This document shows, piece after piece, positions 4,315-48,001 of a DNA stretch of 64,000 bases (its first letter is position 1; every line of letters starts with the position of its first letter). The stretch is from Thermoplasmata archaeon (lineage in GTDB: Archaea; Thermoplasmatota; E2; DHVEG-1). Below the pieces are notes generated by a model. The model ran no database searches. It was given only the letters and a program-made list of their open reading frames with translations, and was not told the origin of the DNA. The stretch is taken from the NCBI GenBank assembly GCA_014894395.1, contig JADBLO010000094.1:346-64345 (forward strand), read 5' to 3'. The position numbers were made by a program, and so were the translations under genes.

Positions 4315-4339
4315 GTTGTTTCCTCCATTTACAATATTA

Positions 4340-13009: not shown

Positions 13010-14098
13010 TCATACATTTTTTTCCATAAATTCAACTATTTCCTTTAACTGATTAAAGTCTACATGAACTCCTTCTTTTTGTATGTTTTGAGCCTCTTCC
13101 ATTATTGGCTTCCAACTATGATTTATACGTGCTAAATGTATTTTTTGTTTTAACTTTTCAGGAACGAACTGCATTATTTGGTCACGTAAGGTTGCCACTG
13201 AAAAAAGAAGGCGCCTATTTTTACAGTAATCCAGGTATGCTTCAACAGCTAATTTAAAATCTTCTAGAACTATTTCTTTGTCGGCCCCATCAATCCTAGA
13301 TAATTCAGTTGTCATGCTCTCATAAAAAAGATTCACTTCTTTTCGATAACGAGGATCTTTTAGCCATGTGTCGAACTGTAATTTTCTGTTATGTTCTTTA
13401 AAATCTATTGGTTTATTTTCTTTGTTCCTCAGCCACATCAGATCTTCAATCACTATTGATTTTCCCTGATAGCATGTTGCTAACTCGAATATAAGTTCTT
13501 CAATGTATGGTGATGAAAATTTTTCTTTTGTGAGTATTGTCATGCTTTTTTTCCATACTTCAGAACGTTGCACTGCGTATATGGTCGAACAAACATATGG
13601 GTTCATGTGCTCAATCATTCTTTCTCTGGTTGTTCCTTCAAAACACCTATAGCCTTTCATTTCATTGTACATTGATGTTGCCATTATTCCGCTTTTTGTA
13701 GTATAAAATCCTATGCACCTTCCAATACATGCTACAATGTCTTTGTTATTTTTCAAATATTCCATACATTTTTCAAGTGAACTTGGAATAAAAAACTCAT
13801 CATCGCACAACATTGCTGTGTATGCTGTATCTATCAATTCCAATGATTTTCTTATCCGGTCATGGAGGTATTTTGGAATATGATAATAATGCACATTATC
13901 CCCAAGGCCTTTGAGGCCCTCAGTGTTTATTGGTGTACTCGTTCCGTCCAATACATATAGTGTCACTGGTGAATCAGACCAAAAATGCATCTGTCTTAGT
14001 GCATAGTGTTGACGATTGTATGTTGGCACAACAAGTGTAAGTTCCGAAAGATTTGGCATTTCGTTCCAGTCAATTTTAATCATTTCCTGCCTGCTCAT
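13010..14098 (-). CDS. Glycosyltransferase, GT2-like.
   Basis: N-terminal LTLVVPTYNRQHY (GT2 VVPTYN motif), followed by LCDDE. 362 aa. Confidence 0.6.
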   Translation of the reverse strand: MSRQEMIKIDWNEMPNLSELTLVVPTYNRQHYALRQMHFWSDSPVTLYVLDGTSTPINTEGLKGLGDNVHYYHIPKYLHDRIRKSLELIDTAYTAMLCDDEFFIPSSLEKCMEYLKNNKDIVACIGRCIGFYTTKSGIMATSMYNEMKGYRCFEGTTRERMIEHMNPYVCSTIYAVQRSEVWKKSMTILTKEKFSSPYIEELIFELATCYQGKSIVIEDLMWLRNKENKPIDFKEHNRKLQFDTWLKDPRYRKEVNLFYESMTTELSRIDGADKEIVLEDFKLAVEAYLDYCKNRRLLFSVATLRDQIMQFVPEKLKQKIHLARINHSWKPIMEEAQNIQKEGVHVDFNQLKEIVEFMEKNV

Positions 14099-14115: not shown

Positions 14116-14877
14116 TTATTTCGTCTTTTTTAGATATCCATCTGGTGCAACTGTAATTAATAATTTGTTTTCTATATTTTTATCAATTTCGAATTCAGGA
14201 TGCGATTTCAAATATTCCCAAACTGCGGTTTTCGGATTATTTCCATTTCCCCAGGGCCGATCTGCAAATAAATTATCGTTCAAATCTTCAATGACAGTAT
14301 CAAATACCACACAATAACTTCCTTTTGAAACGAGTGGCCCATATGCATTCAGTTCAGCCAATACATGTGCATGCGTATGATTTGAATCCAAACAAACCAA
14401 AATATTGTTGTAGTTCTGTGCAAAATCATGAACCTGCTTGACTATGTTTTTGTCAATTGAAGATCCCTGCAGCATTTCTATTTTTTCTGATAGCGGATGT
14501 TTTTCTATCTCAACCCTGTTATGTGCTCTTATATCGATATCGATCCCGAGCACCTTGCCTCTTTTAATTGCTTTTGATGCTTCTAGCAATGTAATCATGG
14601 AAGCACTTAAGATCAGTGAACCTCCATGGGCAATACCCGTTTCAATAATGAGATCTGGCTTTACGGCCCAAATCAGTTCCTGCATTGCAATGATGTCTTG
14701 TGGATACTGAATTATCGGCCTGCCAAGCCATGAAAAATTATAGGTATACTTGGATACTGACGAAGCGTTCATGAAGTTATGGGCGCAGGATTTCATCTCT
14801 TCGTTTTGACCATTTGCATCAATTCTTTCTCTTACTTCTTTTTCAAAGTTCATGGTGATCCACCTGTATGCAATCAA
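14116..14877 (-). CDS. CmcI/cephalosporin-hydroxylase-family class I SAM-dependent methyltransferase, likely a sugar O-methyltransferase.
   Basis: LIIETGIAHGGSLIL and overall PF04989-like pattern. 253 aa. Confidence 0.75.
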   Translation of the reverse strand: MIAYRWITMNFEKEVRERIDANGQNEEMKSCAHNFMNASSVSKYTYNFSWLGRPIIQYPQDIIAMQELIWAVKPDLIIETGIAHGGSLILSASMITLLEASKAIKRGKVLGIDIDIRAHNRVEIEKHPLSEKIEMLQGSSIDKNIVKQVHDFAQNYNNILVCLDSNHTHAHVLAELNAYGPLVSKGSYCVVFDTVIEDLNDNLFADRPWGNGNNPKTAVWEYLKSHPEFEIDKNIENKLLITVAPDGYLKKTK

Positions 14878-14999: not shown

Positions 15000-15908
15000 C
15001 TACTCTGATTGCTTCAATAATTCCGTTGTGTAGTTCCTTATTTTTTCCGGTGTCAACCCATATTTGTCAGCAAAATAATTCTTGTCTCCGACGGTTCTTT
15101 CAAACCCATCAGGAGGGGCAAGAGAATATAACTCCGTTGTATACAATTTTGATTCTACGAGAAACTGGCTCAGTATATTATAAAGTCCAGAACTGGCAAC
15201 ATGGTCCTCAACAACCAATATTTTAGGATATTGCAGGAAAACCCTAGACATTTCGTCCTTTTCAAATGGTTTAATTTTATTCATACAATAAACAGAAAAT
15301 GCACCATCTGTACCTGCAGCCTTCAGACAATTCTCCAGCATCGTCCCATGGGTTATAACCAGGAGACGGGAGCCGCGATTTTCGGTAACCATATGATTAA
15401 GACCTATTTGTTCAGAAGGGAGATCGAGACAACCTTTTCCAATCCTTACATAGGAAGGATTCTTATGCTTGAATATATCCTCAAAAACAATACGAACTGA
15501 TGCCATTGTGGAAGGGGAATAAATATTCATATAGGGAAATACTTTGATACAACCTATGTCGTCAATTACCTGATGTGTAGGACCAAGGCCGCCATTGTCA
15601 TAGCCTGTCGATGTCCCCACAAGAACTACAGGATAATTATGTAGACAGATGTCGTTTCTTATCTGTTCATAACATCTCTGAATCAGGAAATTTGAAATCG
15701 TGTAACAGACCGGACGAAATCCCACATTGCATAGTCCAGCACTTATTCCTATCATATTCTGCTCTGCAATACCGACATTAATAAACCGTTCTGGGAATTC
15801 TTTTTGGATCGGATCCACCAAACCAAGCCCCATATCGGCCACAACTAGGAAGATGGTCTTATCCTTGCACATCTGTTCAATGAGTTGTGTAAAAAATACG
15901 TTCCTCAT
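15000..15908 (-). CDS. Transketolase, C-terminal (pyrimidine-binding) subunit of a split transketolase.
   Basis: Pyr/TK-C domain motifs (GPTHQ, ISNF). The start overlaps the upstream TPP-subunit stop by 4 nt. Confidence 0.88.
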   Translation of the reverse strand: MRNVFFTQLIEQMCKDKTIFLVVADMGLGLVDPIQKEFPERFINVGIAEQNMIGISAGLCNVGFRPVCYTISNFLIQRCYEQIRNDICLHNYPVVLVGTSTGYDNGGLGPTHQVIDDIGCIKVFPYMNIYSPSTMASVRIVFEDIFKHKNPSYVRIGKGCLDLPSEQIGLNHMVTENRGSRLLVITHGTMLENCLKAAGTDGAFSVYCMNKIKPFEKDEMSRVFLQYPKILVVEDHVASSGLYNILSQFLVESKLYTTELYSLAPPDGFERTVGDKNYFADKYGLTPEKIRNYTTELLKQSE

Positions 15909-16756
15909 GTCTGCCGCCTCTTTGACAGTTCAATAGATGCTTTTTTATATTCTTCATCATTCGGTGGTCTGTAATGCCAGACATTATTATTTTCCATAAA
16001 TGAAACGCCTTTGCCTTTGATCGTATGGCAGATAATCGCGCCAGGGGTCTCTGATTCCTTCAGCCTTTGAATTGTTTGACAGATTTGTTCTTCATCATGT
16101 CCGTCAACCTCAAATGTTTTAAAACAAAAGCTTTCGAGTTTGTCTTTTAGGGAGTTAAATGAACAATAGGAATTGATGTCTTTGGTGCCGCCTAAACCAT
16201 TCATGTCTACCAGGACGCAAAGGTTATCAAGTTTCAGATGTCCTGCGAGAAGAAGTGCCTCCCAGTTAGACCCCTCATGGAGTTCTCCATCGCCGACAAT
16301 TACATATACTCTTGAATCAAGTCCTTTCGATTTCAAGCCGATTCCTATCCCAACCGCAACCGAAAGTCCATGTCCGAGAGCTCCCGTAGAGTGTTCTACA
16401 TATGGGACAAAGTGGCTCGCATGGCCACTTAGTATCGACCCGTTCTTATAGTATGTCATAAGCTCTTCATCGGATAACAGGCCTAAATGGTTTAATATAA
16501 CGTAAAGGGCTGCCGCCGAATGCCCTTTGCTGAGAATGACACGGTCTCTGTCGTCTCTTTTATCCTTTATTTTTTTGATATCAATACCCCTATACACTGC
16601 AGATAGAATTTCAATAACCGAAAAAGAGGATCCAATATGAGACGCCTTGGATTGGTAAATAATATCCAATACTCGTTTTCGTAGTAGATCTGTCTTCTGC
16701 GTCTCTTTTCGGCTGTCAATACTACTTCGTCCCATTGTTAATTCCCTTTCCTTCAT
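15905..16756 (-). CDS. Transketolase, N-terminal thiamine-diphosphate-binding subunit.
   Basis: GDGELHEGSNWEALLLAGHLKLDNLCVLVDMNG TPP-binding motif, plus HSTGALGHGLS. Confidence 0.88.
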   Translation of the reverse strand: MKERELTMGRSSIDSRKETQKTDLLRKRVLDIIYQSKASHIGSSFSVIEILSAVYRGIDIKKIKDKRDDRDRVILSKGHSAAALYVILNHLGLLSDEELMTYYKNGSILSGHASHFVPYVEHSTGALGHGLSVAVGIGIGLKSKGLDSRVYVIVGDGELHEGSNWEALLLAGHLKLDNLCVLVDMNGLGGTKDINSYCSFNSLKDKLESFCFKTFEVDGHDEEQICQTIQRLKESETPGAIICHTIKGKGVSFMENNNVWHYRPPNDEEYKKASIELSKRRQT

Positions 16757-17544
16757 CCTGTAATATCTTTCTTCTTCCTGGAGGGATGGTCGATTTTTAC
16801 AATACCAGTTCTGGCCTTAAGCCCCGATTTACCGTTATCCGTAATGATTAAAGGATAAAGTTTCTTCTCAACACAGAAACTGTAAAAGCCATTGGACCAA
16901 TCGAGGTCGTCAGCCATAATTAGGGCATTTGAATTCAATTTTTCCCATACTAACGTCATTTCTTGTTTTATAAAAGCAAACGAATGGTCACTATCATGGT
17001 TATACAGATCAATCTTCTCATTCAACCTTGGAATCTCTTCAAGACTATTTCCCCGTATGAGTGTCCACCGCTCTTTCTGGGCAGGATGAACGATAAAACC
17101 AATATCCAGTCCTTGGGGTATGTCCTCGGAATCACCCACTAAATAATGCCTCGACATTTTGTCATCCGAATTTCTTGGAAGATCAATGGAAATCAACTTA
17201 CCAAAATGATTCCTTCTTAATGCATTCAGAATAAAACAGGTTGTTCCTCCATAAAACACTCCGGTCTCAAGGCAGACGGAAGGTCGATTGAGTCTGACGA
17301 GAATGTATAAGATAATCCTTTGTATCGCAAACCAATCTACTGATTCCAGGTTGCTATGTCTGAATATACCCTTTTGATACGTGAGCCTTACCTTTTGAAT
17401 CTGTTCATTTATCTCGTCCAAAAACTGTTGATCTCCCAATAATTCCTTGTACAGCTGATCTATCTTTGTAAACTCTACATTGAGATAATCAGCTAAGAGT
17501 TCGAGACTCATTGTATTAAGCGAACGGCATAATGCTGGGTCCAT
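16753..17544 (-). CDS. Class I SAM-dependent O-methyltransferase (TylF/Methyltransf_24-like). The probable true start is Met12 at 17511.
   Basis: SVCLETGVFYGGTTCFI and LIMADDLDW motifs. An ATG at 17509-17511 sits 4 nt after the stop of the small upstream ORF. Confidence 0.7.
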   Translation of the reverse strand: MDPALCRSLNTMSLELLADYLNVEFTKIDQLYKELLGDQQFLDEINEQIQKVRLTYQKGIFRHSNLESVDWFAIQRIILYILVRLNRPSVCLETGVFYGGTTCFILNALRRNHFGKLISIDLPRNSDDKMSRHYLVGDSEDIPQGLDIGFIVHPAQKERWTLIRGNSLEEIPRLNEKIDLYNHDSDHSFAFIKQEMTLVWEKLNSNALIMADDLDWSNGFYSFCVEKKLYPLIITDNGKSGLKARTGIVKIDHPSRKKKDITG

Positions 17545-17719
17545 TTTTTGTTTCCCTCTTTACAAGAAATTCTCTTCTTTCCCTTAATCTCTCTTCGTTG
17601 CCTATGCGAACGCCCTTCGCTGTCCACACAGCCTGGTTAAAAGGGCCGTAAGCATTTACTATCTCAATCTGGTCGGCTGAGATTCTCTCATCCACTTTGC
17701 TAGAGAGGTGTACCATCAT
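17516..17719 (-). CDS. Small hypothetical protein (67 aa).
   Basis: ATGATGA overlap with the stop of the upstream epimerase gene, giving translational-coupling geometry. The ORF ends 4 nt before the Met12 start of the downstream methyltransferase. No recognisable domain. Confidence 0.3.
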   Translation of the reverse strand: MMVHLSSKVDERISADQIEIVNAYGPFNQAVWTAKGVRIGNEERLRERREFLVKRETKNGPSIMPFA

Positions 17720-18627
17720 TGGTCACCCAGAAAAGCATTCAAGTCACGTAAGCCCTGCTCGAGGTTGATTTTCGGCCCCCAATGGAGAAGCTCTTTTGCT
17801 TTCTTGTTTGAGACTGGTCTGATGCTTATGTTATTAGGAGTTGTCTCAACAATCTCGGGATTCTTATTCAAGATTTTCTTTGAAGTCTCAATTACTTCAC
17901 CGAGTCTTAAAAGCCTGTTGCCCTCAAGGTTTATTATATTGAAGCCAGGCAAGCCAATTGACTTAACAATGCCCTCAACGATGTCAGAAACATTGATAAA
18001 GCACCTTCCGGTCCGAAGGGATCCGACAGTAATCTTGTCCTGCGTCCTGACCTGGTTGAAAAGAGACTCAACAGCTGACCAATTGTCTTTCCTGCTGCCA
18101 TAGATTATGCCGAATCTCAGGATAGCCACAGGGCAGAAGCCGTGCTTTGAATTCTGGCGGAGATTTCCCTCTGAGACTAGCTTTGAAAGGGCATACTCAG
18201 AGGTATGGTTGGCGATATTGATAATTGAATCCTCTGTCTTTTCCTCCCCTTCAACAAAATTGTCATAAACCCATTCTGTTGATGCGAAAATAAACTGTTT
18301 GACATTCCTCTGCTCTGCTGCTTGCATCAAGTTCAGCGTTCCCATCACATTGATAGTGAAACATTCATATGCCTTGTTCTTGCAATCAGAGTCCCTTGAC
18401 AAGGCTGCGAGGTGGATGATTGCATCAGCGCCGTCTGGAATGAGCTCTGCAATCTCCGGCTTGTTTATGTCAGCTGAGAAATATTCTGACCGCTGTACCT
18501 TTGGCAAATCCACACAGACAGTCTTGTAGCCAAGCGAATGACATTTTTTCACAAGTTCCTTGCCAACAAATCCTTCTGAGCCGGTTATGAAAATTGTTTT
18601 CGGACGATGTGCCTTGTTTTCTTGCAT
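17716..18627 (-). CDS. NAD-dependent sugar epimerase/dehydratase/reductase (extended SDR).
   Basis: TIFITGSEGFVGKELV Rossmann motif plus a YxxxK region. The first ATG gives MQENKAH; the track start at 18639 is a TTG extension. Confidence 0.8.
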   Translation of the reverse strand: MQENKAHRPKTIFITGSEGFVGKELVKKCHSLGYKTVCVDLPKVQRSEYFSADINKPEIAELIPDGADAIIHLAALSRDSDCKNKAYECFTINVMGTLNLMQAAEQRNVKQFIFASTEWVYDNFVEGEEKTEDSIINIANHTSEYALSKLVSEGNLRQNSKHGFCPVAILRFGIIYGSRKDNWSAVESLFNQVRTQDKITVGSLRTGRCFINVSDIVEGIVKSIGLPGFNIINLEGNRLLRLGEVIETSKKILNKNPEIVETTPNNISIRPVSNKKAKELLHWGPKINLEQGLRDLNAFLGDQ

Positions 18628-18808
18628 TTTTATCACCAACAGCTGAATGTATTTTATTGGCCTTTAATCACATTTCATCTTCTGTCAACTTTCTGAGGTT
18701 TCCTTTGGGATTTGATGTAACCATGAGACGCGTATTTTTTTCATCAACCCTGAATTCAAGAGTGATTTTTATGAAATCCTTAATGGCGTCAAGTGTATTG
18801 GCATGACC

Positions 18809-19714
18809 TTAATGTATTTTTCTGAAGTATTCAATAGTTTTTTCAATCCCTTTTTCAATGCTAAACTTTGGTTTCCATCCTACATCTGCTTTAATCCTTG
18901 AAATATCTGCCCAGAAATCCATGAGGGGAGAATCCGCAGGTTTTCCACTTTCTGAAACATACCTTTCGTTTAAATTATATAAGCGATAGACCGTGTTAAT
19001 GATATGTAGAATCTCCGTGGAATACCCTGAACCAATATTGTATACTTCTCCCTTCATCTCCTTAGTGATTAGCAGGGAAATCGCTTCGGCCACATCTTCG
19101 ACGTATACGAAATCATTTCGAGAATGAGGGGTTTTAATGTTCGGATGATCACCTGAACGAATAGAGGTAATAATATGCGGGATAAGAGAATGACCTTTCT
19201 GCTCTGGCCCATATACGTAAAACAGTCGTGTCCAGATAAATTCCATGTGATTTTCCCGAGCGATTTCTCGCCCCATTAAATGTAATGCATGTTTTGCCGC
19301 GGTGAACGCGCTCGATGGCTTTACCACTGAATCTTCATCAAGTTTGCCAGATTTCTGTCCGTATTCCCAACAACTTCCAGTACAAAGAACACGTTTGCAA
19401 CCAATCTCAGCTAACATTACAATCAAATTCAAACCATAGATCAGATTTTTCATGCTGGTTTTATAATCATAGTTTGGAATGTCCCCCCATGCCATGTGAA
19501 TAGTTACATCAGGTTGAAATTTTTTAACCACATCTTTCCACGCATCGATATTTGAAAGATCTCCCACGAATGCCGTTATTTTTTTATGATAATCAGTAAA
19601 AGACGGTTTTTCAGATTCTTGAATCAATAAAAGTAAATCGTGTTCTTCCTCCATCAACTTTCTTACTACATGAGTACCAATGAAACCTGTTCCTCCAGTA
19701 ACGAAAATTCTCAT
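18809..19714 (-). CDS. NAD-dependent sugar epimerase/reductase (extended SDR).
   Basis: MRIFVTGGTGFIGTHVV. 301 aa. Overlaps the upstream cupin-gene stop by 4 nt. Confidence 0.8.
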   Translation of the reverse strand: MRIFVTGGTGFIGTHVVRKLMEEEHDLLLLIQESEKPSFTDYHKKITAFVGDLSNIDAWKDVVKKFQPDVTIHMAWGDIPNYDYKTSMKNLIYGLNLIVMLAEIGCKRVLCTGSCWEYGQKSGKLDEDSVVKPSSAFTAAKHALHLMGREIARENHMEFIWTRLFYVYGPEQKGHSLIPHIITSIRSGDHPNIKTPHSRNDFVYVEDVAEAISLLITKEMKGEVYNIGSGYSTEILHIINTVYRLYNLNERYVSESGKPADSPLMDFWADISRIKADVGWKPKFSIEKGIEKTIEYFRKIH

Positions 19715-20253
19715 TCTATTTCCAAACCCCTAAATTTTTCGACAAACTCTTTGAAGCTTTGCGCTTTCGAATCCTTCTCCGATAAGAGGGGATTAGACAC
19801 CGGCCATTTTATTCCAAGATCAGAGTCATTCCATTTAATAGTACCCTGACTTGTAGGATTATAGTAATTACTCATTTTGTACAGTAACGTGCAATCATTG
19901 GTTAAGGTGCACATGCCAAGTGCAAGACCTTTTGGAACGTACAGCATGTTTTTATTCTGTTCAGAGAGAATCGCGCTATCCCAGCAACCAAACATTGAGG
20001 AGTTTTTCCGTATATCAACAAACACCATAAAAATCTCCCCATGGACTGCTCTCACGAGTTTTGTTTCCGTGTTCGGTGGAAATTGAAAATGAAGCCCTCG
20101 TATCGTCCCTTTTTGCTTTGAATAGGAATGATTCTCTTGAACCCACCGCTGTTCTAAACCATGGTCTTGAAATAACGTATCATCATAGGTTCTCATAAAA
20201 AATCCCCTATGATCTTCGTGAACCTCTAATTCGATTTCAAAGACTCCCTTCAT
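19711..20253 (-). CDS. NDP-4-keto-6-deoxy-sugar 3,5-epimerase (RmlC-like cupin).
   Basis: MKGVFEIELEVHEDHRGFFMRTY is the typical RmlC N-terminus. The probable start is the Met at 20253, preceded by AAAGAAAG; the track start at 20289 is an extension. Confidence 0.85.
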   Translation of the reverse strand: MKGVFEIELEVHEDHRGFFMRTYDDTLFQDHGLEQRWVQENHSYSKQKGTIRGLHFQFPPNTETKLVRAVHGEIFMVFVDIRKNSSMFGCWDSAILSEQNKNMLYVPKGLALGMCTLTNDCTLLYKMSNYYNPTSQGTIKWNDSDLGIKWPVSNPLLSEKDSKAQSFKEFVEKFRGLEIE

Positions 20254-21511
20254 TTTTCTTTCTTTTATCTGCATTGTAGTCACAAACACTCATCATTGCT
20301 GGGGTATTCGGTAATGGGATGATACAGGTACCCGTATAATTAAACCTCTTTTTTAAAATCGTGATGATTTCGTCTGTGAAATTCCACGCTAAAATAAATA
20401 CACACTTCGGGTTTTTACTCATGACCTGTTCTGGGCTGTCAATAGGGATATGGGTTCCTGCGGTGTACCGTTTATGTTTCAAGGGATTCTGATCAGCGAT
20501 GAGAGAAATATATTGCGTGTCAATCCCACAATAATTCAGTAAGGTGGAACTTCGTGCTGATGCGCCATACCCAACAAGGGGTCCACTTGCATCAGTTACT
20601 TCTTTCATCATCTTTAATAATTGTTCACGATGAACATGAACTCGCCGTGAAAAATCTTGCCAGCTACTCAAATCATTAAGTTTCTTTTTCTGTTCGGTAT
20701 CTCGATATGATTGAACGGTGTGCGCCTCTGCTTCCTTGTTTTTTTTCACATATAAAATCAATGATCCACCACTAATCGGACTCTCATTGATATCAACCAC
20801 AAATAGTCCGAATCGATGCAACAACGCTTCAACACTTTTCAAGGTAAAATAACATAAATGCTCATGATAGATCGAATCATAATGCAACTCATCATAGATT
20901 CTTCCTGCATAGTGGACCTCCAACGCAAGTAAACCATCTGTTTCTAAAACTCGGGAAAGCCCGTCTACAAAATCATGAAGATGCGCCACGTGCGGAAGAA
21001 CATTCCGTGCGATCACCACTTTCGCCGGACCATGCTGCTTCAGTATTTCCTCTGCGACTTGAACTCCAAAAAAGCTGCATTTCGTTGGAATACCCTGTGC
21101 AATAGCTATCTTGACAATGTTCTCTGCAGGATCAACTCCAAGAACCAGATACTTGTTTTTCACAAAGGGCTGTAGAAATGTCCCGTCGTTACTCGCAACT
21201 TCGAGGACATATCCTTTATTCAAATCGTGAACGCGAGTGACAATTTCTCGATAAAACATCTGTGCATGGTCTTGAGCTGTATGAGACGTACCGGTAACCC
21301 AAACGTAATTTGAAAATAACTTCTTTGGATCGACCGTGTAATTTAACTGAACCAGATTACATTCTGGACACCAACTTAATGAAAGAGGATACAACGGCTC
21401 TTTTTCGGTTGCAGTTTTCAGTAGAGAATTGGCTGGGGGTTGGTTCCCAAGGTCGAGAAATTCGACGATATGTTTGTTTTCACAGACTCGGCAACATTTG
21501 ATGTGTGTCAT
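20237..21511 (-). CDS. NDP-hexose C-methyltransferase (TylCIII-like) with an N-terminal zinc ribbon.
   Basis: CRVCENKHIVEFLDLGNQPPANSLL, where the C4 ribbon is completed by CPECN, plus a class I methyltransferase core. 424 aa. Confidence 0.8.
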   Translation of the reverse strand: MTHIKCCRVCENKHIVEFLDLGNQPPANSLLKTATEKEPLYPLSLSWCPECNLVQLNYTVDPKKLFSNYVWVTGTSHTAQDHAQMFYREIVTRVHDLNKGYVLEVASNDGTFLQPFVKNKYLVLGVDPAENIVKIAIAQGIPTKCSFFGVQVAEEILKQHGPAKVVIARNVLPHVAHLHDFVDGLSRVLETDGLLALEVHYAGRIYDELHYDSIYHEHLCYFTLKSVEALLHRFGLFVVDINESPISGGSLILYVKKNKEAEAHTVQSYRDTEQKKKLNDLSSWQDFSRRVHVHREQLLKMMKEVTDASGPLVGYGASARSSTLLNYCGIDTQYISLIADQNPLKHKRYTAGTHIPIDSPEQVMSKNPKCVFILAWNFTDEIITILKKRFNYTGTCIIPLPNTPAMMSVCDYNADKRKKNEGSL

Positions 21512-21540: not shown

Positions 21541-23367
21541 TTAAGTGAAATCGGATTCGTTCATCGTATAAATTGCATCAGCATAATCTTTTGTTTTTTT
21601 AATGATAGGTACTTCGTCTATTTCTCGAGACTTAATGATTTTTTCGGTCTGTTTTGTAGAGCATTTCTTGTAGTCAATATAAAACTCTTTGAGTCGCTGA
21701 ATTCGCACCGTGTCGTTGATATCGACGTAAATATGGTAATCAGAGAGGTTTCGGACGTCTTCGATATCTAATGAGACAATTCCATCGATGATACCGATGC
21801 CATGCTCTTCGATATATAATGGGGTAGAATTTTTCTTTTGGGTGACCTGTCGTGTTTGTGAGTCATACACCGGAGGGTAGATTTTCTCCCCGTGTTTAAG
21901 GCGGGTGATTGTCTCCGATATTTTTGTATATTGATACCGCTCACGCACTGTTTCATTTCCTTTTCGTTCGTTGAGTCCAAGCAGCCAATTATCAAGAGGA
22001 ATAATAGTACTTGGGATTTTTTTCCCTTTGAGATCTTCTTGTATTTTTTTTGCAAGGATTGTTTTCCCGGACCTGCTGCACCCTGCGATTGAGACGATAA
22101 ATCTTGTTTTGTCTGACTTCATATAGGTTTCAAGTAAGGATTCAAATAAAGTATAATACGTATCAATTCGTTTGTTGGCTGTTGATCCAAGGAGTGAATG
22201 AACCACCTGTAGCAGATTTTTCTCTGGTGTCACTAGTATGGTCTTGACACCAGCAGCATTCCCTGCTTGCAGATCACGTTCATCATCACCGATAAAAACT
22301 GTTTTTGAAAGATCTAATTGATGATCCCGGGCAGCTTGGAAGAACATTCCGGGTTTTGGTTTCCTACATTCACAGTTTTCATCCCACCCATGAGGACAAT
22401 AGTAGATGCCATCGATCTTCGCCTTATTGTTGTGTAATTCTCTCTGAAGATGTTCATGGATACTGCGGAGATCCGACTCAGTCATTACACCCCGAGCAAT
22501 CCCTGCTTGGTTCGTGATAAGATAGACGTGATATCCATTTTTTGTGAGAAGTTCCAATGCTTCTATGGCCCCTGGTAGGAATTCGAATTCATTCCACTTC
22601 TTCACATACTCTGCTTTAGGTGGTTTTTTATTAATGACGCCATCCCTATCCAAGAAAATCACTTTCTTTGGCTGGAGGAATCTTTCTGTCAGTGGCAAAC
22701 GCTCTAATGACCCAATGCTATAATATCTATAATCCACCAAATATCCGGATAACTGATGATTTTCGATGAGTTTTGGAATGATGACATTCTGAAAAGAAAA
22801 ATTCTCACCAGGCATCCATTCTGTTATCTTCTTACTGAGAATGAAAAAACCGACATCTACCCCGTTGAGATCTTTCGCTTGCCTTGTTCGATCGTAGGTT
22901 ATGACATATCCTTTCTCATCCACAAACACATTATTTTTCGTTATTTTGTCTTTGTTCGTATATATCGTAACGCTTGCCATAGTCTTTTGTTTTTCATGGA
23001 ATTCCACAAGTTTCTTTAGATCCAACGGGAGATAATTATCGCAATACGTCAAGAGGAAAAACTCCTGGAGGAGCTCCTCTGCTTTTTTTATTCGTGTTCC
23101 GGTCTCATCTGAAAGATCACTTATCGAATATTTTATTTTCACTCCGAATCTTGAACCATCTCCGAAATACTCCGTGATTTTTTCAGGAAGATACCCGAGC
23201 AAGAGCACGATTTCACAGATTCCGTTTTCTTTCAACAGGCCTATGAGATATTCGAGAAATGGTTTCCCATTCATTAAAATCATTGGCTTTGGTACTGTAT
23301 CGGTCAGCGGTTGTAGTCTTGTTCCTCGTCCTCCAGCAAGGATTACAGCTTGTTTAACTGAAAGCAT
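21541..23367 (-). CDS. Tri-domain fusion: heptose-1-P nucleotidyltransferase (HddC-like), D,D-heptose-1,7-bisphosphate phosphatase (GmhB-like HAD), and a uridine-kinase/phosphoribulokinase-family P-loop kinase domain.
   Basis: N-terminus MLSVKQAVILAGGRGTRLQPLTD is the NTP-transferase domain. The middle has VIFLDRDGVIN...CECRKPKPGMF...FIGDDERD, the GmhB HAD motifs with a Cys/zinc loop. The C-terminus has IVSIAGCSRSGKTILAKKI...IPLDNW...KHGEKIYPPVYD...GIIDGIVSL...YHIYVDINDTVRIQRLKEF...KDYADAIY, which aligns motif-for-motif with Udk/PRK. Confidence 0.8.
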   Translation of the reverse strand: MLSVKQAVILAGGRGTRLQPLTDTVPKPMILMNGKPFLEYLIGLLKENGICEIVLLLGYLPEKITEYFGDGSRFGVKIKYSISDLSDETGTRIKKAEELLQEFFLLTYCDNYLPLDLKKLVEFHEKQKTMASVTIYTNKDKITKNNVFVDEKGYVITYDRTRQAKDLNGVDVGFFILSKKITEWMPGENFSFQNVIIPKLIENHQLSGYLVDYRYYSIGSLERLPLTERFLQPKKVIFLDRDGVINKKPPKAEYVKKWNEFEFLPGAIEALELLTKNGYHVYLITNQAGIARGVMTESDLRSIHEHLQRELHNNKAKIDGIYYCPHGWDENCECRKPKPGMFFQAARDHQLDLSKTVFIGDDERDLQAGNAAGVKTILVTPEKNLLQVVHSLLGSTANKRIDTYYTLFESLLETYMKSDKTRFIVSIAGCSRSGKTILAKKIQEDLKGKKIPSTIIPLDNWLLGLNERKGNETVRERYQYTKISETITRLKHGEKIYPPVYDSQTRQVTQKKNSTPLYIEEHGIGIIDGIVSLDIEDVRNLSDYHIYVDINDTVRIQRLKEFYIDYKKCSTKQTEKIIKSREIDEVPIIKKTKDYADAIYTMNESDFT

Positions 23368-23373
23368 GTGTTC

Positions 23374-24423
23374 TCACGTCATCCAGTACATCTTCTTGTT
23401 TACCTTTTTTTCATTCATCAGGTATTTCAATTGCAATGTGCGATTGCATTGTCTTCCCCGAAACATAGCTTCCGTGAAATGTATTTCATCAAAAAAAGAA
23501 ACAATCTCATTTCCGCCCCGAAAGAGATCCCACTCTGGTTTGTAATACTCTTTTAATACGGAAAGTATCTTTACAAACGAAACTCGGTATGTTCTGGCAT
23601 CTGATCCATGTTCGCCCGTATAAATTATAGTTGATCCCTTCACAACATTTTGTGCAGCTTCTGCGAGTTGTTTTACTGTAAAATTACCATCATTAATACC
23701 AACATTAAATGATTCATTTGAGATTAGTTTTTCTGGTGCTTCAATACCTGCAATAAATGCATTTGATACATCCCTGATATGGACGACGGGTCGCCATGGT
23801 GACCCATCGCTTTTTACTTCTATTTTCCCTGTTGTATAAGCACTAGCGATAAAGTTATTGTAAACGATGTCACATCGCAACCTTGGGCTTACCCCGAAAA
23901 CGGTCGATGGGCGAAAACATACAACGGTAAAATCATCATCCCCTAGCTTCTTCAATTCACATTCCGCATCCCATTTCGTTTTTGCGTACATCGTAATAGG
24001 ATTCTTTTCACTTGTATCCTCATCTAGTTCTTCATCTGTCTTTGCCACCCCGTACATACTTTGAGATGAAGAATATACAAAACGCTTAATTCCAATTTCT
24101 TTTGCCAATGTAGCCAATCTGATCGTTGCAACATAATTGATATCATATGTTAATTTTTGATTGAGTTCGCCCAATGGATCATTAGACAGAGCTGCAAGAT
24201 GAATGATGGCATCAATACCCTTCAGATCTGCTTTTGAGACCTTTCGGATATCTTTGTTAATTTGCTGTATATTAGTATCTAACTTCTTCAATTCGCAACC
24301 TTTGTAATAATCCGTGTCAAAACCTTTTACGGTATAGCCTCGATCTAAAAGGAGTTTTGTCAATATGCATCCGATATATCCTCTGTTCCCAGTTACAAGA
24401 ATATTCACAATATCCCTCCACAT
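23374..24423 (-). CDS. NAD-dependent sugar epimerase/dehydratase (extended SDR), a candidate GDP-heptose-modifying enzyme.
   Basis: NILVTGNRGYIGCIL Rossmann motif, SSSQSMYG, YAKTK. 349 aa. Confidence 0.8.
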   Translation of the reverse strand: MWRDIVNILVTGNRGYIGCILTKLLLDRGYTVKGFDTDYYKGCELKKLDTNIQQINKDIRKVSKADLKGIDAIIHLAALSNDPLGELNQKLTYDINYVATIRLATLAKEIGIKRFVYSSSQSMYGVAKTDEELDEDTSEKNPITMYAKTKWDAECELKKLGDDDFTVVCFRPSTVFGVSPRLRCDIVYNNFIASAYTTGKIEVKSDGSPWRPVVHIRDVSNAFIAGIEAPEKLISNESFNVGINDGNFTVKQLAEAAQNVVKGSTIIYTGEHGSDARTYRVSFVKILSVLKEYYKPEWDLFRGGNEIVSFFDEIHFTEAMFRGRQCNRTLQLKYLMNEKKVNKKMYWMT

Positions 24424-24428: not shown

Positions 24429-25022
24429 TTATTTCTTTTGTCTTTGTTGCTCTTCTCTGATTAATGATGTTAAAAGATGCTCAAGAAGCAGGTGAATGTC
24501 CTCTACGCGCTGCATATAATTACTCGGTGCATGGATGTTCTCTTGGGCGCATCTGAGTAATGCGCCTCCATCATATCCAGAAATACCTATAGTTATCCCT
24601 CTGTTTTCGTTTGCATATTTTATGGCTTTAACCACATTCGCCGAATTCCCACTGCCACTAATACCGATTATGACATCGCCAGGTTCCATTAAATTCTTCA
24701 ATTGTTCGACAAAAATATCATCATAGCTTGCATCATTTGCCCATGCCAGCATGGTTGGAATATTATCAGTGAGTGCAATCGCTTTAAACCTGGGAAATCC
24801 ATCGACAATGGTTCCTTTTGAAAGATCACTTACAAAATGAGATGCTGTTGAGGCACTACCCCCATTTCCCATTATAAAAATCGTTTTTCGTTCAGTTCGT
24901 GCTTTCAACAAAATAGTCGCAATAGTGTCCATTTTTTTTACAAGATCTCGCTCCATTACATTTAATATTGTGTGTATTTCCTTTAAATAATCCTTCGTAA
25001 ATTTTTCCCTGAAGTTATCCAT
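24429..25022 (-). CDS. gmhA: Sedoheptulose-7-phosphate isomerase (phosphoheptose isomerase, SIS domain).
   Basis: IFIMGNGGSASTASHFVSDLSK SIS motif. 197 aa. Confidence 0.85.
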   Translation of the reverse strand: MDNFREKFTKDYLKEIHTILNVMERDLVKKMDTIATILLKARTERKTIFIMGNGGSASTASHFVSDLSKGTIVDGFPRFKAIALTDNIPTMLAWANDASYDDIFVEQLKNLMEPGDVIIGISGSGNSANVVKAIKYANENRGITIGISGYDGGALLRCAQENIHAPSNYMQRVEDIHLLLEHLLTSLIREEQQRQKK

Positions 25023-25024: not shown

Positions 25025-26005
25025 TTAATCACTCACGTAGATAATTCTGCTTCCAGATGCCTCGAATGCAAATGTTACATCTTTCAAATCATGAAGTGCT
25101 TTTCTTACAAAATCTTGCTTTTCTTTTTCACAGTAGAACAACAAAAAACCGCCTCCTCCAGAACCCAAAATTTTCCCCCCGATTGCTCCAGCTTTTCGGG
25201 CTTTTTCATAATATGAATTGATAATAGGATTTGAGATTTTACTTGCGAGTTGTTGTTTGTACATCCATCCTTGATGAAGTATTTCTCCGAATCTCGTGAG
25301 ATCGTTGTTTCTTAATGCCTCTTGAAGTTCGCGAACCTGCTCAACCATTTTATCATAAATATGGAGTTTGTCTTCTGTTTTTTTAATTTGTTCCGTTAAA
25401 ATATCTCCTGATGTGATCTGTTTTCCCATATAAAACATAAGTAAATTTTCTTTTAATTTTTCTTTAATTTCTTTCTTGAAAATAATCGGATTCACTATGA
25501 CACTTTCATCTGCATTAAATTGTATATAGTTAAATCCCCCATATGCTGCTGCATATTGATCCTGTTTTCCGATTGGGTGTCCTAGTATGTCGATTTCAAT
25601 TCTACATGATTCCTGAGCCAATGTTTCAGCTGAGACATGTTCCCCTTTAAATGCATGAAGTGCGTGTAACGTTCCTACAACAATACTACTCGAAGCACCT
25701 AATCCGGATCCCTCCTGCGCTGGTAGAAGATCTGACATGTAAACGATTTCCAGTCCCTTCGTAATACCAGTCATTTTTAATGCATCCCGAACAAGATTAT
25801 GCTCGATCTCATCGACAGTTTTAACATATTCTATTTTTGAGTAGGCTACACGAATATTATCTGTGAATCTTTTATTCACGGTGATATATACATATTTGTT
25901 AATTGCAGTACTGATCACCGCACCGTGTCCATGTTGATAATATGCACGAATATCTGATCCACCGCCTACAAAACTCATTCGTAATGGTGTTCTTGAGATA
26001 ATCAT
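25025..26005 (-). CDS. hddA: GHMP-family sugar kinase, HddA-like D-glycero-alpha-D-manno-heptose-7-phosphate kinase.
   Basis: ISRTPLRMSFVGGGSDI N-terminus, the GHMP ATP motif PAQEGSGLGASSS, and a GGGGFLLF C-terminal motif. Confidence 0.8.
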   Translation of the reverse strand: MIISRTPLRMSFVGGGSDIRAYYQHGHGAVISTAINKYVYITVNKRFTDNIRVAYSKIEYVKTVDEIEHNLVRDALKMTGITKGLEIVYMSDLLPAQEGSGLGASSSIVVGTLHALHAFKGEHVSAETLAQESCRIEIDILGHPIGKQDQYAAAYGGFNYIQFNADESVIVNPIIFKKEIKEKLKENLLMFYMGKQITSGDILTEQIKKTEDKLHIYDKMVEQVRELQEALRNNDLTRFGEILHQGWMYKQQLASKISNPIINSYYEKARKAGAIGGKILGSGGGGFLLFYCEKEKQDFVRKALHDLKDVTFAFEASGSRIIYVSD

Positions 26006-26294: not shown

Positions 26295-27350
26295 TTATGA
26301 AAATAATAATCGTTTTATTTCTTCTTTTGAAATCGGTTTGACATCTCTTGACGAGTATCGACCTAAGCTACAATGCCGTGCATTGGGATAATCTGAGATT
26401 CCAAAACTAAGACTAGGCATCTCAAGCTGCGGAGGAATTATCAACATATCATCAGTCTCAAATCCTACTGCTGCTTCCGATTCGGTCATTAACTCTTCAA
26501 ACATTTTCTCGCCAGGCCGTAGTCCGATGATTCTTTTTTCAATGGTTTCTTTTTTATGATGATATTTTTCCGCGTATGCTTCAATGATAACGTCAACAAG
26601 ATCTCCTAGTCTGACGACCGGCATTTTCAGGATGAAGACTTCTCCTCCTTTTGCCAAGACTGTTGCTTTGAATACCAACTCAATAGTATCAGAGACCAAC
26701 ATCATGAATCGTGTCATTTCCGGGTTTGTAATCGTGATTGGTTTTTTTTGTCGAATCTGTTCTTCGAAAAGGGGGATAACTGATCCTCGTGAGAATGAGA
26801 CATTCCCGAAACGTACTGAAGAAAAAATCGTTGGTTTGACTCCTTTTCCCTCATTAGCATCGATAATAAGTTTCTCAGCAAGGAGTTTTGTTGCACCCAT
26901 AGTATTTACTGGGTTTACTGCTTTATCAGTGCTAATGTTAATGACTCGATTTACACCCGATGCAAGAGCTGCTTCAATAACATTTTTTGTCCCGAGAACA
27001 TTAGTTTTAATTGCTTCGAATGGATTGTATTCACAGAGTGGAACATGTTTGAGCGCAGCTGCATGGTAGACAATATCGATATCCTCCATGGCAAGTAAAA
27101 CTCGTTCTTTATCACGGATGTCCCCTATTAAGAATCTTCTGTCAGAGATTTCATGCATCATCTTAGGTCCGCTATTGTCTATCTCATGCATCATTCGAAA
27201 CGTATTATCTTCGTCATTACTGAAGATTCGTACGACCTCTGGTTTGTATTTTAATACGCTTCGTACGATTTCACTTCCGATGCAACCAGTTCCACCAGTG
27301 ACTAAGATTTTTTTTCCTCGAAAGATGTTTTCTAATTGTTTTTGCATCAT
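26295..27350 (-). CDS. UDP-N-acetylglucosamine 4,6-dehydratase (PglF/PseB/CapD family, Polysacc_synt_2).
   Basis: ILVTGGTGCIGSEIV, then HAAALKHV, then GATKLLAEKL. Confidence 0.85.
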   Translation of the reverse strand: MMQKQLENIFRGKKILVTGGTGCIGSEIVRSVLKYKPEVVRIFSNDEDNTFRMMHEIDNSGPKMMHEISDRRFLIGDIRDKERVLLAMEDIDIVYHAAALKHVPLCEYNPFEAIKTNVLGTKNVIEAALASGVNRVINISTDKAVNPVNTMGATKLLAEKLIIDANEGKGVKPTIFSSVRFGNVSFSRGSVIPLFEEQIRQKKPITITNPEMTRFMMLVSDTIELVFKATVLAKGGEVFILKMPVVRLGDLVDVIIEAYAEKYHHKKETIEKRIIGLRPGEKMFEELMTESEAAVGFETDDMLIIPPQLEMPSLSFGISDYPNARHCSLGRYSSRDVKPISKEEIKRLLFS

Positions 27351-28498
27351 GTTCCTCTACATCCTTTTTCAATCACAGAAATAATGTAATCCATTTCCTT
27401 TTTTGTTAAGGATGGATAGAGTGGGAGTGTAAGTACTTTTTCTGCTATTTCTTCAGTGACTGGCAAATCACTTTTTTTGTAGTTAAATTCTTTTATGTAG
27501 AATGTTTTCAGGTGAATCGGCTCGAAGTAGACTTTCGTCATGATCCCTGCCTTGGTGAGGTGTTGCTGCAAATGGTCCCTGGTTTTTTTATCAGGTAGTT
27601 CGATGGTGTAGAGCTGGTAGACATGATACTCACCTTTGGATTCAGCCGGTGTTCGTATATCCTTTATCTTTGAGAGTTTTTTTGTATAATACGCTGCTTT
27701 TTCTCTGCGCATTTGTATGATTCTGTTAAATTTCTTGAATTGTGAAAGCACGAGTGCTGCATTGATACTTGGCAGTCGGTAATTATAGCCTGCTTGGATG
27801 TAATCTAACTCTCGGGTGGTCGCGAAATATCCCTCTTTACTTTCGACACGACCATGAGAGCGAATCAGCTGGAGTTTTTCAGTAATAGCTTTTGAATCGG
27901 TGACAACGATGCCGCCTTCCCCTGCGGTAATGACCTTGTTTTGGCAGAAGCTGAACATCGCAGCATCACTGAAAGTTCCTACACGTCTGTTATGTATTTT
28001 TGCTCCCAGTGATTCTGCAGCATCCTCGATAAGTACGAGGTGATGATCTTTTGCGATTTCTTGTAACGCTTTGATATTTTTACAAGGTCCTCCGCCATAA
28101 TGAATAGGGATGATCGCTTTGGTTTTACTGGTTATTTTTTCTTTAACATCTTCAGGGTCAAGAGCATAGGATTGCTTCTCGATGTCAGCAAACACAGGCG
28201 TCGCACCTGTAAGGACGACGACGTTTGCGGTGGCGATAAAGGTAAATGACGGGACAATAACTTCATTTCCGTGTTTGATATCATAGGCCAGAAGTGTTGC
28301 ATGAAGCGCTGATGTCCCTGAGTTAAACGAAACTCCGAATTTTTTCCCAATAAAACCAGCGATGTTGTCTTCCAATGTCTGTATTTCGGGACCCATGGTC
28401 CAGTAACTTCCCCGTTTGATGACCTTGGTGACTGCGACGACATCTTGTGTATCCCAGTACATCTTGAAGAGAGGAATTTTCCAATTCATTTTTTTCAT
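27347..28498 (-). CDS. DegT/DnrJ/EryC1-family PLP-dependent nucleotide-sugar 4-aminotransferase (PglE/PseC-like).
   Basis: 383-aa DegT family with a PLP-lysine region. Overlaps the upstream gene by 4 nt. Confidence 0.88.
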   Translation of the reverse strand: MKKMNWKIPLFKMYWDTQDVVAVTKVIKRGSYWTMGPEIQTLEDNIAGFIGKKFGVSFNSGTSALHATLLAYDIKHGNEVIVPSFTFIATANVVVLTGATPVFADIEKQSYALDPEDVKEKITSKTKAIIPIHYGGGPCKNIKALQEIAKDHHLVLIEDAAESLGAKIHNRRVGTFSDAAMFSFCQNKVITAGEGGIVVTDSKAITEKLQLIRSHGRVESKEGYFATTRELDYIQAGYNYRLPSINAALVLSQFKKFNRIIQMRREKAAYYTKKLSKIKDIRTPAESKGEYHVYQLYTIELPDKKTRDHLQQHLTKAGIMTKVYFEPIHLKTFYIKEFNYKKSDLPVTEEIAEKVLTLPLYPSLTKKEMDYIISVIEKGCRGT

Positions 28499-28617
28499 CC
28501 TTTTTCTGTTTGTTTTCTCGAGAGGGGATACCTTCAGCCTATGATCAGATGGTGCCTGTGTCGGTTTTGTTGTAAGGACATATCTTATATGTCTTCAGCT
28601 AGGGAGACCACAGGACA

Positions 28618-29763: not shown

Positions 29764-30197
29764 TTGATCACCTTGTATAATTCTTCAATTTCTTTTTTTG
29801 TTAGTTTTCTTATAGCTTTAGCTGGAACGCCGTAGGCTACAGTATTATCCGGTATATCAGTAATTACAAAGCTGAATGCACCGATAATCGCGTTTTCTCC
29901 AATGGTAACATCAGGCATGACTACGGAATGTGTTCCCACACGGCAATTCTTTTTCAGGGTGATGTTCCCTTCTTTATTGTCGATTGTGGAAATCGAATAA
30001 AGGGAGCAGTGAGACCCGATTTGAACGTAGTCTTCCAGGGTAACACCTTTTTTTGCGTTAATGTAGGTAAAGGCACCGATGTCCACACGTTTACCTAGTT
30101 TTAGGTTCTTATGATGCTGGCACATCCAATTCCATTTTGTCGTATCGTTTTTATCGAAGGTGGGTTGTTTCCATTTTGTAAATCGTTTCTTGGTCAT
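29760..30197 (-). CDS. Hexapeptide-repeat (LbH) N-acetyltransferase (PglD/NeuD/LegH-like).
   Basis: Hexapeptide repeats IGSHCSL...VGTHSVV...IGENAIIGAFSFV. 145 aa. Confidence 0.75.
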   Translation of the reverse strand: MTKKRFTKWKQPTFDKNDTTKWNWMCQHHKNLKLGKRVDIGAFTYINAKKGVTLEDYVQIGSHCSLYSISTIDNKEGNITLKKNCRVGTHSVVMPDVTIGENAIIGAFSFVITDIPDNTVAYGVPAKAIRKLTKKEIEELYKVIK

Positions 30198-30208
30198 ATG
30201 CTTTCAAC

Positions 30209-32409: not shown

Positions 32410-32415
32410 GTTGAG

Positions 32416-35010: not shown

Positions 35011-35031
35011 GATTGTTCACGAGTATCCGTA

Positions 35032-39910: not shown

Positions 39911-39920
39911 GGGATAGGTT

Positions 39921-40388: not shown

Positions 40389-40400
40389 GAGTAATGCAGT

Positions 40401-41501: not shown

Positions 41502-41512
41502 TGTCTTTTTCT

Positions 41513-42397: not shown

Positions 42398-42398
42398 T

Positions 42399-43664: not shown

Positions 43665-43693
43665 AGTTGAGAATGGAAAACTTTCTTGTTCTT

Positions 43694-47486: not shown

Positions 47487-47492
47487 CACGAA

Positions 47493-47900: not shown

Positions 47901-48001
47901 GGATTTCGTTCGAGAAGAATACGATAAGTTTCGCTCCTTGCACCCTTATTTTTTTCATCAATTTTGTTATTCTGCCATCTAAAAAAAGCTCACATTCTCC
48001 A

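Follow-up and report, generated by a model that had tools for sequence, protein, structure and literature searches.

Which sugar is made by four adjacent genes of an uncultured Thermoplasmata archaeon that encode a C-methyltransferase, an RmlC-type cupin epimerase and two extended short-chain dehydrogenases/reductases (SDRs)? The genes lie in a stretch of 64,000 nucleotides (contig JADBLO010000094.1, positions 346 to 64,345, assembly GCA_014894395.1), referred to below as the window. A sequence-only reading of this DNA had proposed that they tailor a C-branched, O-methylated 6-deoxyheptose or hexose, following the logic of Campylobacter capsule heptoses. Family matches were confirmed for all four open reading frames (ORFs), which are located on the minus strand at the coordinates first assigned to them, and the genes are real and correctly placed. 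Identical copies of window proteins are on record from 'Thermoplasmata archaeon' metagenome-assembled genomes (MAGs), in agreement with the archaeal host that had been suggested. Judging from sequence, we consider it probable, on balance, that the region encodes one pathway, in two linked modules, that tailors a nucleotide-activated heptose for a surface glycan and would yield a nucleoside diphosphate (NDP)-C-methyl-heptose.

A C-methyltransferase clade linked to heptose genes

Loci containing the C-methyltransferase (C-MT) were surveyed by tblastn, ORF clustering and a neighbour-joining tree, with one genome per species; the search returned 80 loci, and 85 C-MT loci were compared. The tree put the window enzyme into a clade with 50 leaves. 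Heptose genes are encoded within 10 kb in 41 of these and in none of the 35 leaves of the sister clade (Fisher p = 8e-16). The flanking set in the heptose-linked loci consists of HddA, GmhA, a GmhB-nucleotidyltransferase and the SDR that we call SDR349, and the window-clade leaves without heptose genes are mostly on short contigs. Identity between the window clade and the non-heptose clade sampled is at or below about 40%. It is strongly supported that the link of this C-MT clade to heptose is no accident of position.

The heptose-linked clade spans ten or more bacterial phyla and two lineages of archaea. Among its bacterial members are Gammaproteobacteria (two of them in culture, Rheinheimera texasensis DSM 17496 and Alteromonas nitratireducens), Saccharibacteria and further members of the candidate phyla radiation, Nitrospirae, Omnitrophota, Acidobacteria, Verrucomicrobia, Desulfobacter and a Mycobacteriaceae MAG; the archaea are Hodarchaeota and Thermoplasmatales. 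The genes of the window that belong to the two modules, together with the gene that follows them, are listed here in the order of their transcription:

25025..26005, minus strand: HddA-like GHMP kinase (heptose 7-phosphate 1-kinase); Pfam GHMP_kinases_N and _C, NCBIfam HddA 2e-44
24429..25022, minus strand: GmhA-like sedoheptulose-7-phosphate isomerase with a SIS domain; Pfam SIS_2 and SIS, NCBIfam phosphoheptose isomerase to 1.6e-33
23374..24423, minus strand: SDR349, 349 aa, Cj1427-like putative NDP-heptose C4-dehydrogenase; PDB 6vo6 1.5e-34
21541..23367, minus strand: fusion of nucleotidyltransferase, GmhB-type HAD phosphatase and phosphoribulokinase (PRK)/uridine-kinase-like P-loop domain, 608 aa; Pfam NTP_transferase, HAD, PRK
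20237..21511, minus strand: C-MT of the TylC3/TcaB9 family, 424 aa; Methyltransf_13, _23, _14
19711..20253, minus strand: RmlC-type cupin 3,5- (or 5-) epimerase, 180 aa from a likely ATG at 20253 (ORF 19711-20289); PF00908, TIGR01221
18809..19714, minus strand: SDR301, 301 aa, extended SDR, probable C4 ketoreductase with Phe for the catalytic Tyr; GxxGxxG, synteny
17716..18627, minus strand: SDR307, 303 aa from a likely start at 18627 (ORF 17716-18639), extended SDR; GxxGxxG, YxxxK
16753..17544, minus strand: MT24, Methyltransf_24 (CmcI-related) methyltransferase; Pfam 7e-17
15905..16756, minus strand: split transketolase N subunit (TK-N), thiamine diphosphate (ThDP)-binding; Pfam Transketolase_N 2e-35
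15000..15908, minus strand: split transketolase C subunit (TK-C), Pyr and C domain; Pfam Transket_pyr, Transketolase_C
14116..14853, minus strand: CmcI/rhamnosyl-O-methyltransferase-family methyltransferase; PF04989 7e-98
13010..14083, minus strand: GT2-like glycosyltransferase, candidate transferase of the modified sugar; TIGR04440 3.8e-36, above cut-off

These genes belong to a co-oriented run on the minus strand from about 36093 down to 13010, of which the GT2-like gene is the last member. The C-MT gene starts 29 nt after the heptose nucleotidyltransferase gene, the epimerase coding sequence overlaps both adjacent genes, the MT24 and TK-N genes overlap by 4 nt, the TK-N and TK-C genes also overlap, and SDR307 is preceded by an AT-rich gap of 170 nt that includes a TATA-like element. 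A 67-codon ORF (17516-17719), which reaches from the end of SDR307 into the start of MT24, is probably no gene and is unmatched in all related loci; it was called by the gene caller on an identical Logan contig. Both methyltransferases that the sequence-only reading had placed downstream are present, but the split transketolase between them (15000-16756) had been passed over. The name 'two reductases' stands as regards the extended-SDR family, since GxxGxxG is found in both proteins, while 'reductase' is an interpretation and not an observation.

The proposed nucleotide-activated heptose scaffold is borne out by the neighbouring genes as well as by the synteny of the clade. The HAD domain of the fusion protein scored 184.1 bits against the GmhB family NF006506, above the cut-off of 178, and HddA orthologues (35-79% identity) were found in 34 of the 39 heptose-type loci. 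Two MAGs, one from Thermoplasmatales and one from Chloroflexi, repeat the order HddA-GmhA-SDR349-nucleotidyltransferase/HAD-C-MT-RmlC-SDR301. On a Hodarchaeales contig the order agrees as far as the C-MT, but SDR301 lies further downstream, and a small cupin takes the place of the RmlC-type epimerase. Identity to the window proteins in these three cassettes is 59-67% for the C-MT and 48-71% for its partners.

The kinase-like domain, which takes up residues ~400-608 of the fusion, matched phosphoribulokinase (2e-10) and uridine kinase (3e-9), and a PDB search could not separate the two. This PRK-like domain occurs in the window and in loci L002 and L005, all of them archaeal, and also in L086, L087 and one Magnetomoraceae bacterium (L088); it is absent from the other bacterial cassettes examined. 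It is fused to the nucleotidyltransferase-GmhB protein in the window, L002 and L086, and encoded by a separate gene beside it in L005, L087 and L088.

Enzymes of the core cassette

The sequence-only reading had described SDR349 as 4,6-dehydratase-like. In a PDB search its top match was 6vo6 (1.5e-34), with the second match 13 orders of magnitude behind (6e-21). We take 6vo6 to be Cj1427, a GDP-heptose C4-dehydrogenase; the depositor's name is generic, and a literature search for 6VO6 and 6VO8 gave nothing relevant. Alignment revealed the Ser/Thr and YxxxK (YAKTK) of the family, and the position of the Asp-Glu or x-Glu of the dehydratases is occupied by Gln-Ser (Asn-Ser in 6vo6). Within the motif SSSQSMYG, the residues S-S-Q-S-M-Y-G are kept in 34 orthologues, as is Y-A-x-T-K, and the gene was found in 33 of the 39 heptose-type C-MT loci. 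The 4,6-dehydratase motif (Thr-x-Glu or Asp-Glu next to Ser/Thr, as in DmhA, DdahA and WcbK) is absent from SDR349, SDR301 and SDR307 alike, and a GMD-type dehydratase motif was present nearby in just three of 40 related loci. A regex control for the dehydratase motif in non-heptose loci gave five hits in 42, a weak result on which no conclusion was based.

These residues identify SDR349 as a predicted Cj1427-like C4-dehydrogenase and not a 4,6-dehydratase. Because SDR349 lacks the Asp/Glu acid/base pair, the '6-deoxy' product of the sequence-only reading is not expected, and O6 should stay in place. The product of Cj1427 is GDP-D-glycero-4-keto-D-lyxo-heptose, with a tightly bound NADH that is recycled via alpha-ketoglutarate (PMC10680097); since this is a 4-keto heptose, the predicted intermediate would retain O6. 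The resemblance to Campylobacter heptose modification thus holds for a dehydrogenase/epimerase/reductase set, with a different analogue from the DdahA/B/C enzymes first named: the relevant one is the route to GDP-D-glycero-L-gluco-heptose in C. jejuni HS:2, which uses the C4-dehydrogenase Cj1427, the C3/C5-epimerase Cj1430 and the C4-reductase Cj1428 (PMC10680097).

The description of the C-MT as TylCIII-like, with an N-terminal zinc domain, was confirmed. Its domain order is an N-terminal Cys4 zinc domain (Methyltransf_13, PF08421, 5e-21), a class I S-adenosylmethionine (SAM) domain (Methyltransf_23, PF13489) and a C-terminal Methyltransf_14 domain (PF08484, 6e-45), all above cut-offs. The nearest solved relatives are TylC3 (4rv9, 3e-66) and TcaB9. 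The four cysteines (C7, C10, C48, C51) are invariant in 16 homologues, as are Y69, H174, Y215, H216, E217 and H218. The active site of TcaB9 is formed by Y76, H181, Y222, E224 and H225, which correspond at a constant offset of 7 to Y69, H174, Y215, E217 and H218 of the window enzyme.

The epimerase matched PF00908 (2e-63) and scored 195.7 bits against TIGR01221 (rmlC), for which the cut-off is 155.75. Among 32 cassette orthologues, H67 and K77 are each conserved in 31, Y137 in 28 and D173 in 29. Two Nitrospirae loci (L016 and L026) contain two cupins, a 155-aa FdtA/RmlC-like protein directly after the C-MT and a full RmlC-type protein before an E1alpha/beta pair, an arrangement which hints at separate epimerase or isomerase steps for two modules.

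SDR301 follows the epimerase in 32 of the 39 loci. Phe replaces the Tyr of YxxxK in about 30 of its cassette orthologues and in 24 database homologues; this residue (F137) is invariant in the alignment of the latter, and in a profile alignment to MoeE5, GalE and Rmd it lies opposite their catalytic Tyr. The family has kept K141 and the motif S114-C115-W116-E117-Y118. The best relatives in a profile search were MoeE5, GalE and Rmd, with GFS at just ~1e-23, and the best NCBIfam match was dTDP-glucose 4,6-dehydratase (108 bits, below cut-off), with Cys and Trp at the Asp and Glu positions of the dehydratase. An AlphaFold2 (AF2) model of SDR301 made with database homologues (pLDDT 91) has an ordinary extended-SDR fold, and Foldseek with this model returned generic extended SDRs (GalE, RmlB, Rmd, WbmG), which do not separate a reductase from an epimerase. 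SDR301 does not resemble the GFS-type C4 reductases (Cj1428, DdahC, MlghC) in its catalytic centre, where Phe breaks the Ser/Tyr/Lys triad.

Three SDR301 homologues (70%, 63% and 54% identical), picked regardless of the C-MT, are encoded in islands syntenic with the window. All three sister islands contain HddA-GmhA-SDR349-nucleotidyltransferase/HAD/PRK-RmlC-SDR301 and lack the C-MT. In two of them (L086 and L087), for which the DNA was compared, the identity to window proteins is 71-73% for GlmS, 67-70% for GlmU, 54-62% for the flippase and 74-79% for HddA. In the window, the C-MT is inserted between the nucleotidyltransferase and the epimerase, and methylation is an add-on to the cassette, as the sequence-only reading had anticipated. 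Because the set without the C-MT mirrors the dehydrogenase/epimerase/reductase triad of C. jejuni HS:2, SDR301 is probably, by analogy, the C4 ketoreductase of the core pathway.

In L086 (10995-14696) and L087 (10987-13753), an SDR349 paralogue of about 360 aa, a GNAT acetyltransferase and a DegT aminotransferase replace the C-MT and the SDR307-MT24-transketolase-CmcI block. These replacement genes suggest an acetamido-heptose variant of the same glycan locus.

The thiamine-dependent module and the rest of the island

SDR307 carries S/T-E-W-V-Y, YxxxK and an NAD-type aspartate (Asp44, at the end of strand 2), all invariant in 12 orthologues. Neither the sister islands nor 28 of the 39 heptose-type loci encode it. 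Of the 11 loci that do, ten also encode a two-subunit ThDP enzyme, as does the window, and in four SDR307 contexts picked regardless of the C-MT this enzyme was always found just downstream (directly in three, after MT24 in one). The ThDP enzyme is either a split transketolase or, in the same slot, an E1alpha/beta-like pair (Pfam E1_dh); the E1 type occurs in 13 loci. The Magnetomoraceae locus has the SDR307-MT24-TK-N-TK-C block of the window, with CmcI at the opposite end, and an SDR-transketolase trio was also found in L057, a C-MT locus without heptose genes.

These observations show that SDR307 is part of another module than SDR301 and is tied to the ThDP enzyme. The two SDRs, which had been regarded as equivalent reductases, differ both in this and in the Phe that SDR301 has in place of Tyr. 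SDR307 is probably a keto-introducing oxidoreductase or a branch reductase. Loci without SDR307 often have the SDR349 paralogue (~360 aa) before the ThDP enzyme, and in the sister islands it precedes the GNAT and aminotransferase genes; such SDR variants suggest a general scheme in which a sugar is oxidised and the ketone is then functionalised. Full-length orthologues of MT24 were seen only alongside a ThDP enzyme of the transketolase type (L038, L043, L053, L088), and the CmcI-like methyltransferase is present in 16 of the 39 heptose-type loci. PDB sequence searches returned only designed repeat proteins for MT24 and nothing for the CmcI-like enzyme.

Two-subunit ThDP enzymes that act on sugars have precedents. 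Acetyl branches are put on keto sugars by the E1alpha/beta-type enzymes AviB1/AviB2, Pau11/Pau12 and KbDH (PMC12247030, PMC4753412). For miharamycin and amipurimycin, hydroxyacetyl transfer by split-gene transketolases preceded by an oxidoreductase has been proposed and is unproven; the 13 known candidate branching transketolases all come from Streptomyces antibiotic clusters, and none is characterised (PMC12247030). A lincosamide-like octose origin, with the transketolase as chain extender, was rejected, the ThDP enzyme being accessory and interchangeable with the E1 type.

The remainder of the island encodes further sugar pathways. Upstream of the heptose genes lies a legionaminic/pseudaminic-type nonulosonate cluster (26295-36093), with genes for a PseB/LegB-like dehydratase, an aminotransferase, a WbuX-family amidotransferase, an acetyltransferase, NeuC, two NeuB paralogues, a CMP-transferase-like protein, a GFO/IDH/MocA oxidoreductase and an SDR. 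A second group (38888-44635) combines a GFO/IDH/MocA oxidoreductase, a hexapeptide acetyltransferase, a DegT aminotransferase, a nucleotidyltransferase, a UDP-glucose/GDP-mannose dehydrogenase and an SDR, and looks like a pathway of the diacetamido-uronic-acid type (WbpB/D/E kind). Large putative surface proteins, possible targets of glycosylation, are encoded on either side of the glycan island (1969-6688, 46425-53994 and 60286-63801); their domains are DUF2341 with Laminin_G_3, NosD/beta-helix, PQQ beta-propeller with PKD, and Peptidase_C25. A 205-aa ORF (48617-49234) matches only the first ~150 of the 240 positions of the Epimerase (SDR) profile and may be a truncated gene or a pseudogene.

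Proposed pathway, alternatives and known systems

In the scheme that we favour, for which we infer the substrates, the nucleotide and the order of steps, module 1 (26005 to 18809) would be the core and would convert sedoheptulose 7-phosphate (S7P) into an NDP-heptose. SDR349 would oxidise C4 of this compound with the 6-hydroxyl kept, and the TylC3-like C-MT, using SAM, would place a methyl group on an enolisable carbon beside the 4-keto group, most likely C3 and possibly C5. The RmlC-type cupin would then epimerise the remaining acidic position, and reduction of C4 by SDR301 would give an NDP-C-methyl-heptose that retains O6. Module 2 (18627 to 14116) would be accessory: SDR307 may make, or later reduce, a keto group, the split transketolase may move a two-carbon unit onto the ketone, MT24 and the CmcI-like enzyme may add methyl groups, and the GT2-like enzyme may transfer the finished sugar. 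We regard it as possible, though on the whole doubtful, that both modules act on one sugar, so that surface glycoproteins would carry a methylated heptose with two C-linked branches, one a C-methyl group and the other a hydroxyacetyl-derived two-carbon unit installed by the transketolase, the split transketolase and E1-like enzymes would be ketone carboligases of primary surface-glycan pathways in Archaea and many bacterial phyla as well as of antibiotic pathways in Streptomyces, and the SDR301 family would be a Tyr-less ketoreductase.

Several observations weigh against this scheme. The precursor enzymes score below their family cut-offs (HddA 152 bits against 600, the nucleotidyltransferase 98 against 300 for HddC, GmhA 110-116, also below), although these families are the top or near-top NCBIfam matches of the window proteins. 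All solved relatives of the C-MT use dTDP-deoxyhexoses. The epimerase is nearer in PDB searches to dTDP RmlC (7e-44) than to the characterised Campylobacter GDP-heptose epimerases (~1e-17), with the noviose epimerase NovW between them (6e-29). SDR301 has no catalytic Tyr, which makes its redox competence uncertain. Transketolase activity on a ketone acceptor has never been demonstrated in vitro (PMC12247030), and in the Hodarchaeales locus L005 (17864-21230) the edge of the heptose/C-MT cassette is occupied by neighbouring genes for a PfkB kinase, a split transketolase and a transaldolase. The two modules could also make two different sugars.

Some of these points would be explained if the four genes were an ordinary branched-sugar set for a 6-deoxyhexose of the mycarose or 3-C-methyl-rhamnose type, with dTDP- or GDP-4-keto-6-deoxyhexose made elsewhere and the heptose genes as unrelated neighbours. 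The sequence-only reading had named grouping with RmlB/C/D as evidence against itself, and this was found in part, for the epimerase, which lies above the rmlC equivalog cut-off and has dTDP RmlC as its top PDB matches; the dTDP substrates of the solved C-MT relatives and the sub-cut-off match of SDR301 to dTDP-glucose 4,6-dehydratase point the same way. However, SDR301 has Cys and Trp at the dehydratase Asp and Glu sites, no RmlA/RmlB pair was recognised among the window ORFs scanned, the C-MT gene follows the heptose nucleotidyltransferase gene within 29 nt and overlaps that of the epimerase, and the clade-specific heptose synteny extends across domains of life. We therefore find a 6-deoxyhexose set highly improbable. 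In our view gene context outweighs the RmlC-like sequence grouping: with heptose genes as neighbours, the epimerase would not be expected to act in dTDP-rhamnose synthesis with RmlA, RmlB and RmlD, and the heptose context, the predicted C4-dehydrogenase and the separate clade speak against a dTDP-4-keto-(2,)6-deoxyhexose as the probable substrate of the C-MT. No better founded is the original proposal of a DdahA/B/C-type route to a C-methyl 6-deoxyheptose, in which SDR349 would be the 4,6-dehydratase and SDR301 and SDR307 the C4 reductases. The locus does contain heptose genes, a cupin epimerase and SDRs, and 6-deoxyheptoses are the commonest Campylobacter products (PMC10680097), but SDR349 is without the dehydratase acid/base residues and nearest to a C4-dehydrogenase structure, and SDR307 is bound to the ThDP enzyme and missing from 28 of the 39 loci and the sister islands.

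It is also conceivable, though unlikely, that the transketolase only supplies S7P in an archaeon with a poor pentose-phosphate pathway, in which case C4 would be reduced by SDR307, with SDR301 as an inactive or non-redox paralogue. TK-N is indeed like an ordinary transketolase (NCBIfam 236 bits, below cut-off), SDR307 is canonical where SDR301 has lost its Tyr, and the transaldolase and PfkB kinase of L005 fit precursor supply, the one context favouring that role. On the other hand, 13 loci have in the same slot an E1alpha/beta pair, a type unable to make S7P; the module occurs in Rheinheimera, a gammaproteobacterium that presumably owns a pentose-phosphate pathway, and an SDR-transketolase trio occurs outside heptose loci in L057. 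Minimal cassettes, moreover, keep SDR301 and not SDR307, and the NAD-type Asp of SDR307 is typical of oxidising or cofactor-retaining SDRs. Slightly more credit, although still little, is due to methylation at C5, as by NovU in noviose, which would give a heptose with a quaternary C5. The C3-methylase TylC3 and the C5-methylase NovU belong to one family and both require a 4-keto group, and NovW is closer to the epimerase than the GDP-heptose epimerases are. Every solved relative of the C-MT at 1e-55 to 1e-66 is, however, a 3-C-methyltransferase, and C5 of a heptose bears the C6-C7 side chain and would be more crowded. We therefore retain C3 methylation of a 4-keto NDP-heptose as the preferred reading.

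Heptose tailoring is known mainly from Campylobacter and C-methyl branching mainly from antibiotic deoxysugars, and no report joining the two was found in the literature searched. Neither a C-methyl or C-branched heptose nor a TylC3-type enzyme tied to heptose was met with there, and a paper on the heptose of the Kuenenia S-layer and papers on beta-heptose enzymes across kingdoms contained nothing on C-methylation. The cassette thus predicts C-methyl heptoses as a sugar class, perhaps common in uncultured organisms and unseen by glycan chemistry. Rheinheimera texasensis DSM 17496, for whose O-antigen chemistry a literature search gave no result, and Alteromonas nitratireducens are cultured carriers of the cassette, and the sister islands with and without the C-MT constitute a natural experiment. 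[quoted passage not shown]

A non-deoxy heptose has a precedent within the class Thermoplasmata: the N-glycan of Thermoplasma acidophilum carries D-glycero-D-galacto-heptose (Vinogradov 2012, cited in PMC12448462), and neither a C-methyl group nor a two-carbon branch is reported there. With the HS:2 route of C. jejuni the window has in common (i) putative genes for a GDP-heptose-type precursor, (ii) C4 oxidation, as predicted, without 6-deoxygenation, and (iii) a cupin epimerase followed by an SDR. It differs by an additional SAM-dependent C-MT, which would act after activation and before epimerisation, by an epimerase from the RmlC subfamily, by a putative reductase from another SDR subfamily in which Phe replaces Tyr, by the fusion of the nucleotidyltransferase to GmhB and a kinase-like domain, and by its archaeal host.

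With the ThDP branching enzymes the window shares a two-subunit ThDP enzyme just downstream of a nucleotide-sugar oxidoreductase (in the window, after MT24), the interchange of transketolase and E1 types, and methyltransferases that follow. Unlike those systems, the module found here occurs in loci for surface glycans, both in an archaeon and in many bacterial phyla, and is attached to a heptose cassette. The C-MT has the three-domain architecture of TylC3, TcaB9 and EvaC, with the same Cys4 zinc site and Tyr/His/Glu/His residues, and is likewise partnered by a cupin epimerase and an SDR ketoreductase (SDR301, if rightly assigned). Its clade is nevertheless separate, and its predicted substrate is a fully hydroxylated 4-keto-heptose nucleotide, whereas theirs is a dTDP-2,6-dideoxy sugar; the enzymes of the window clade are encoded in cell-surface glycan loci, and theirs in antibiotic clusters.

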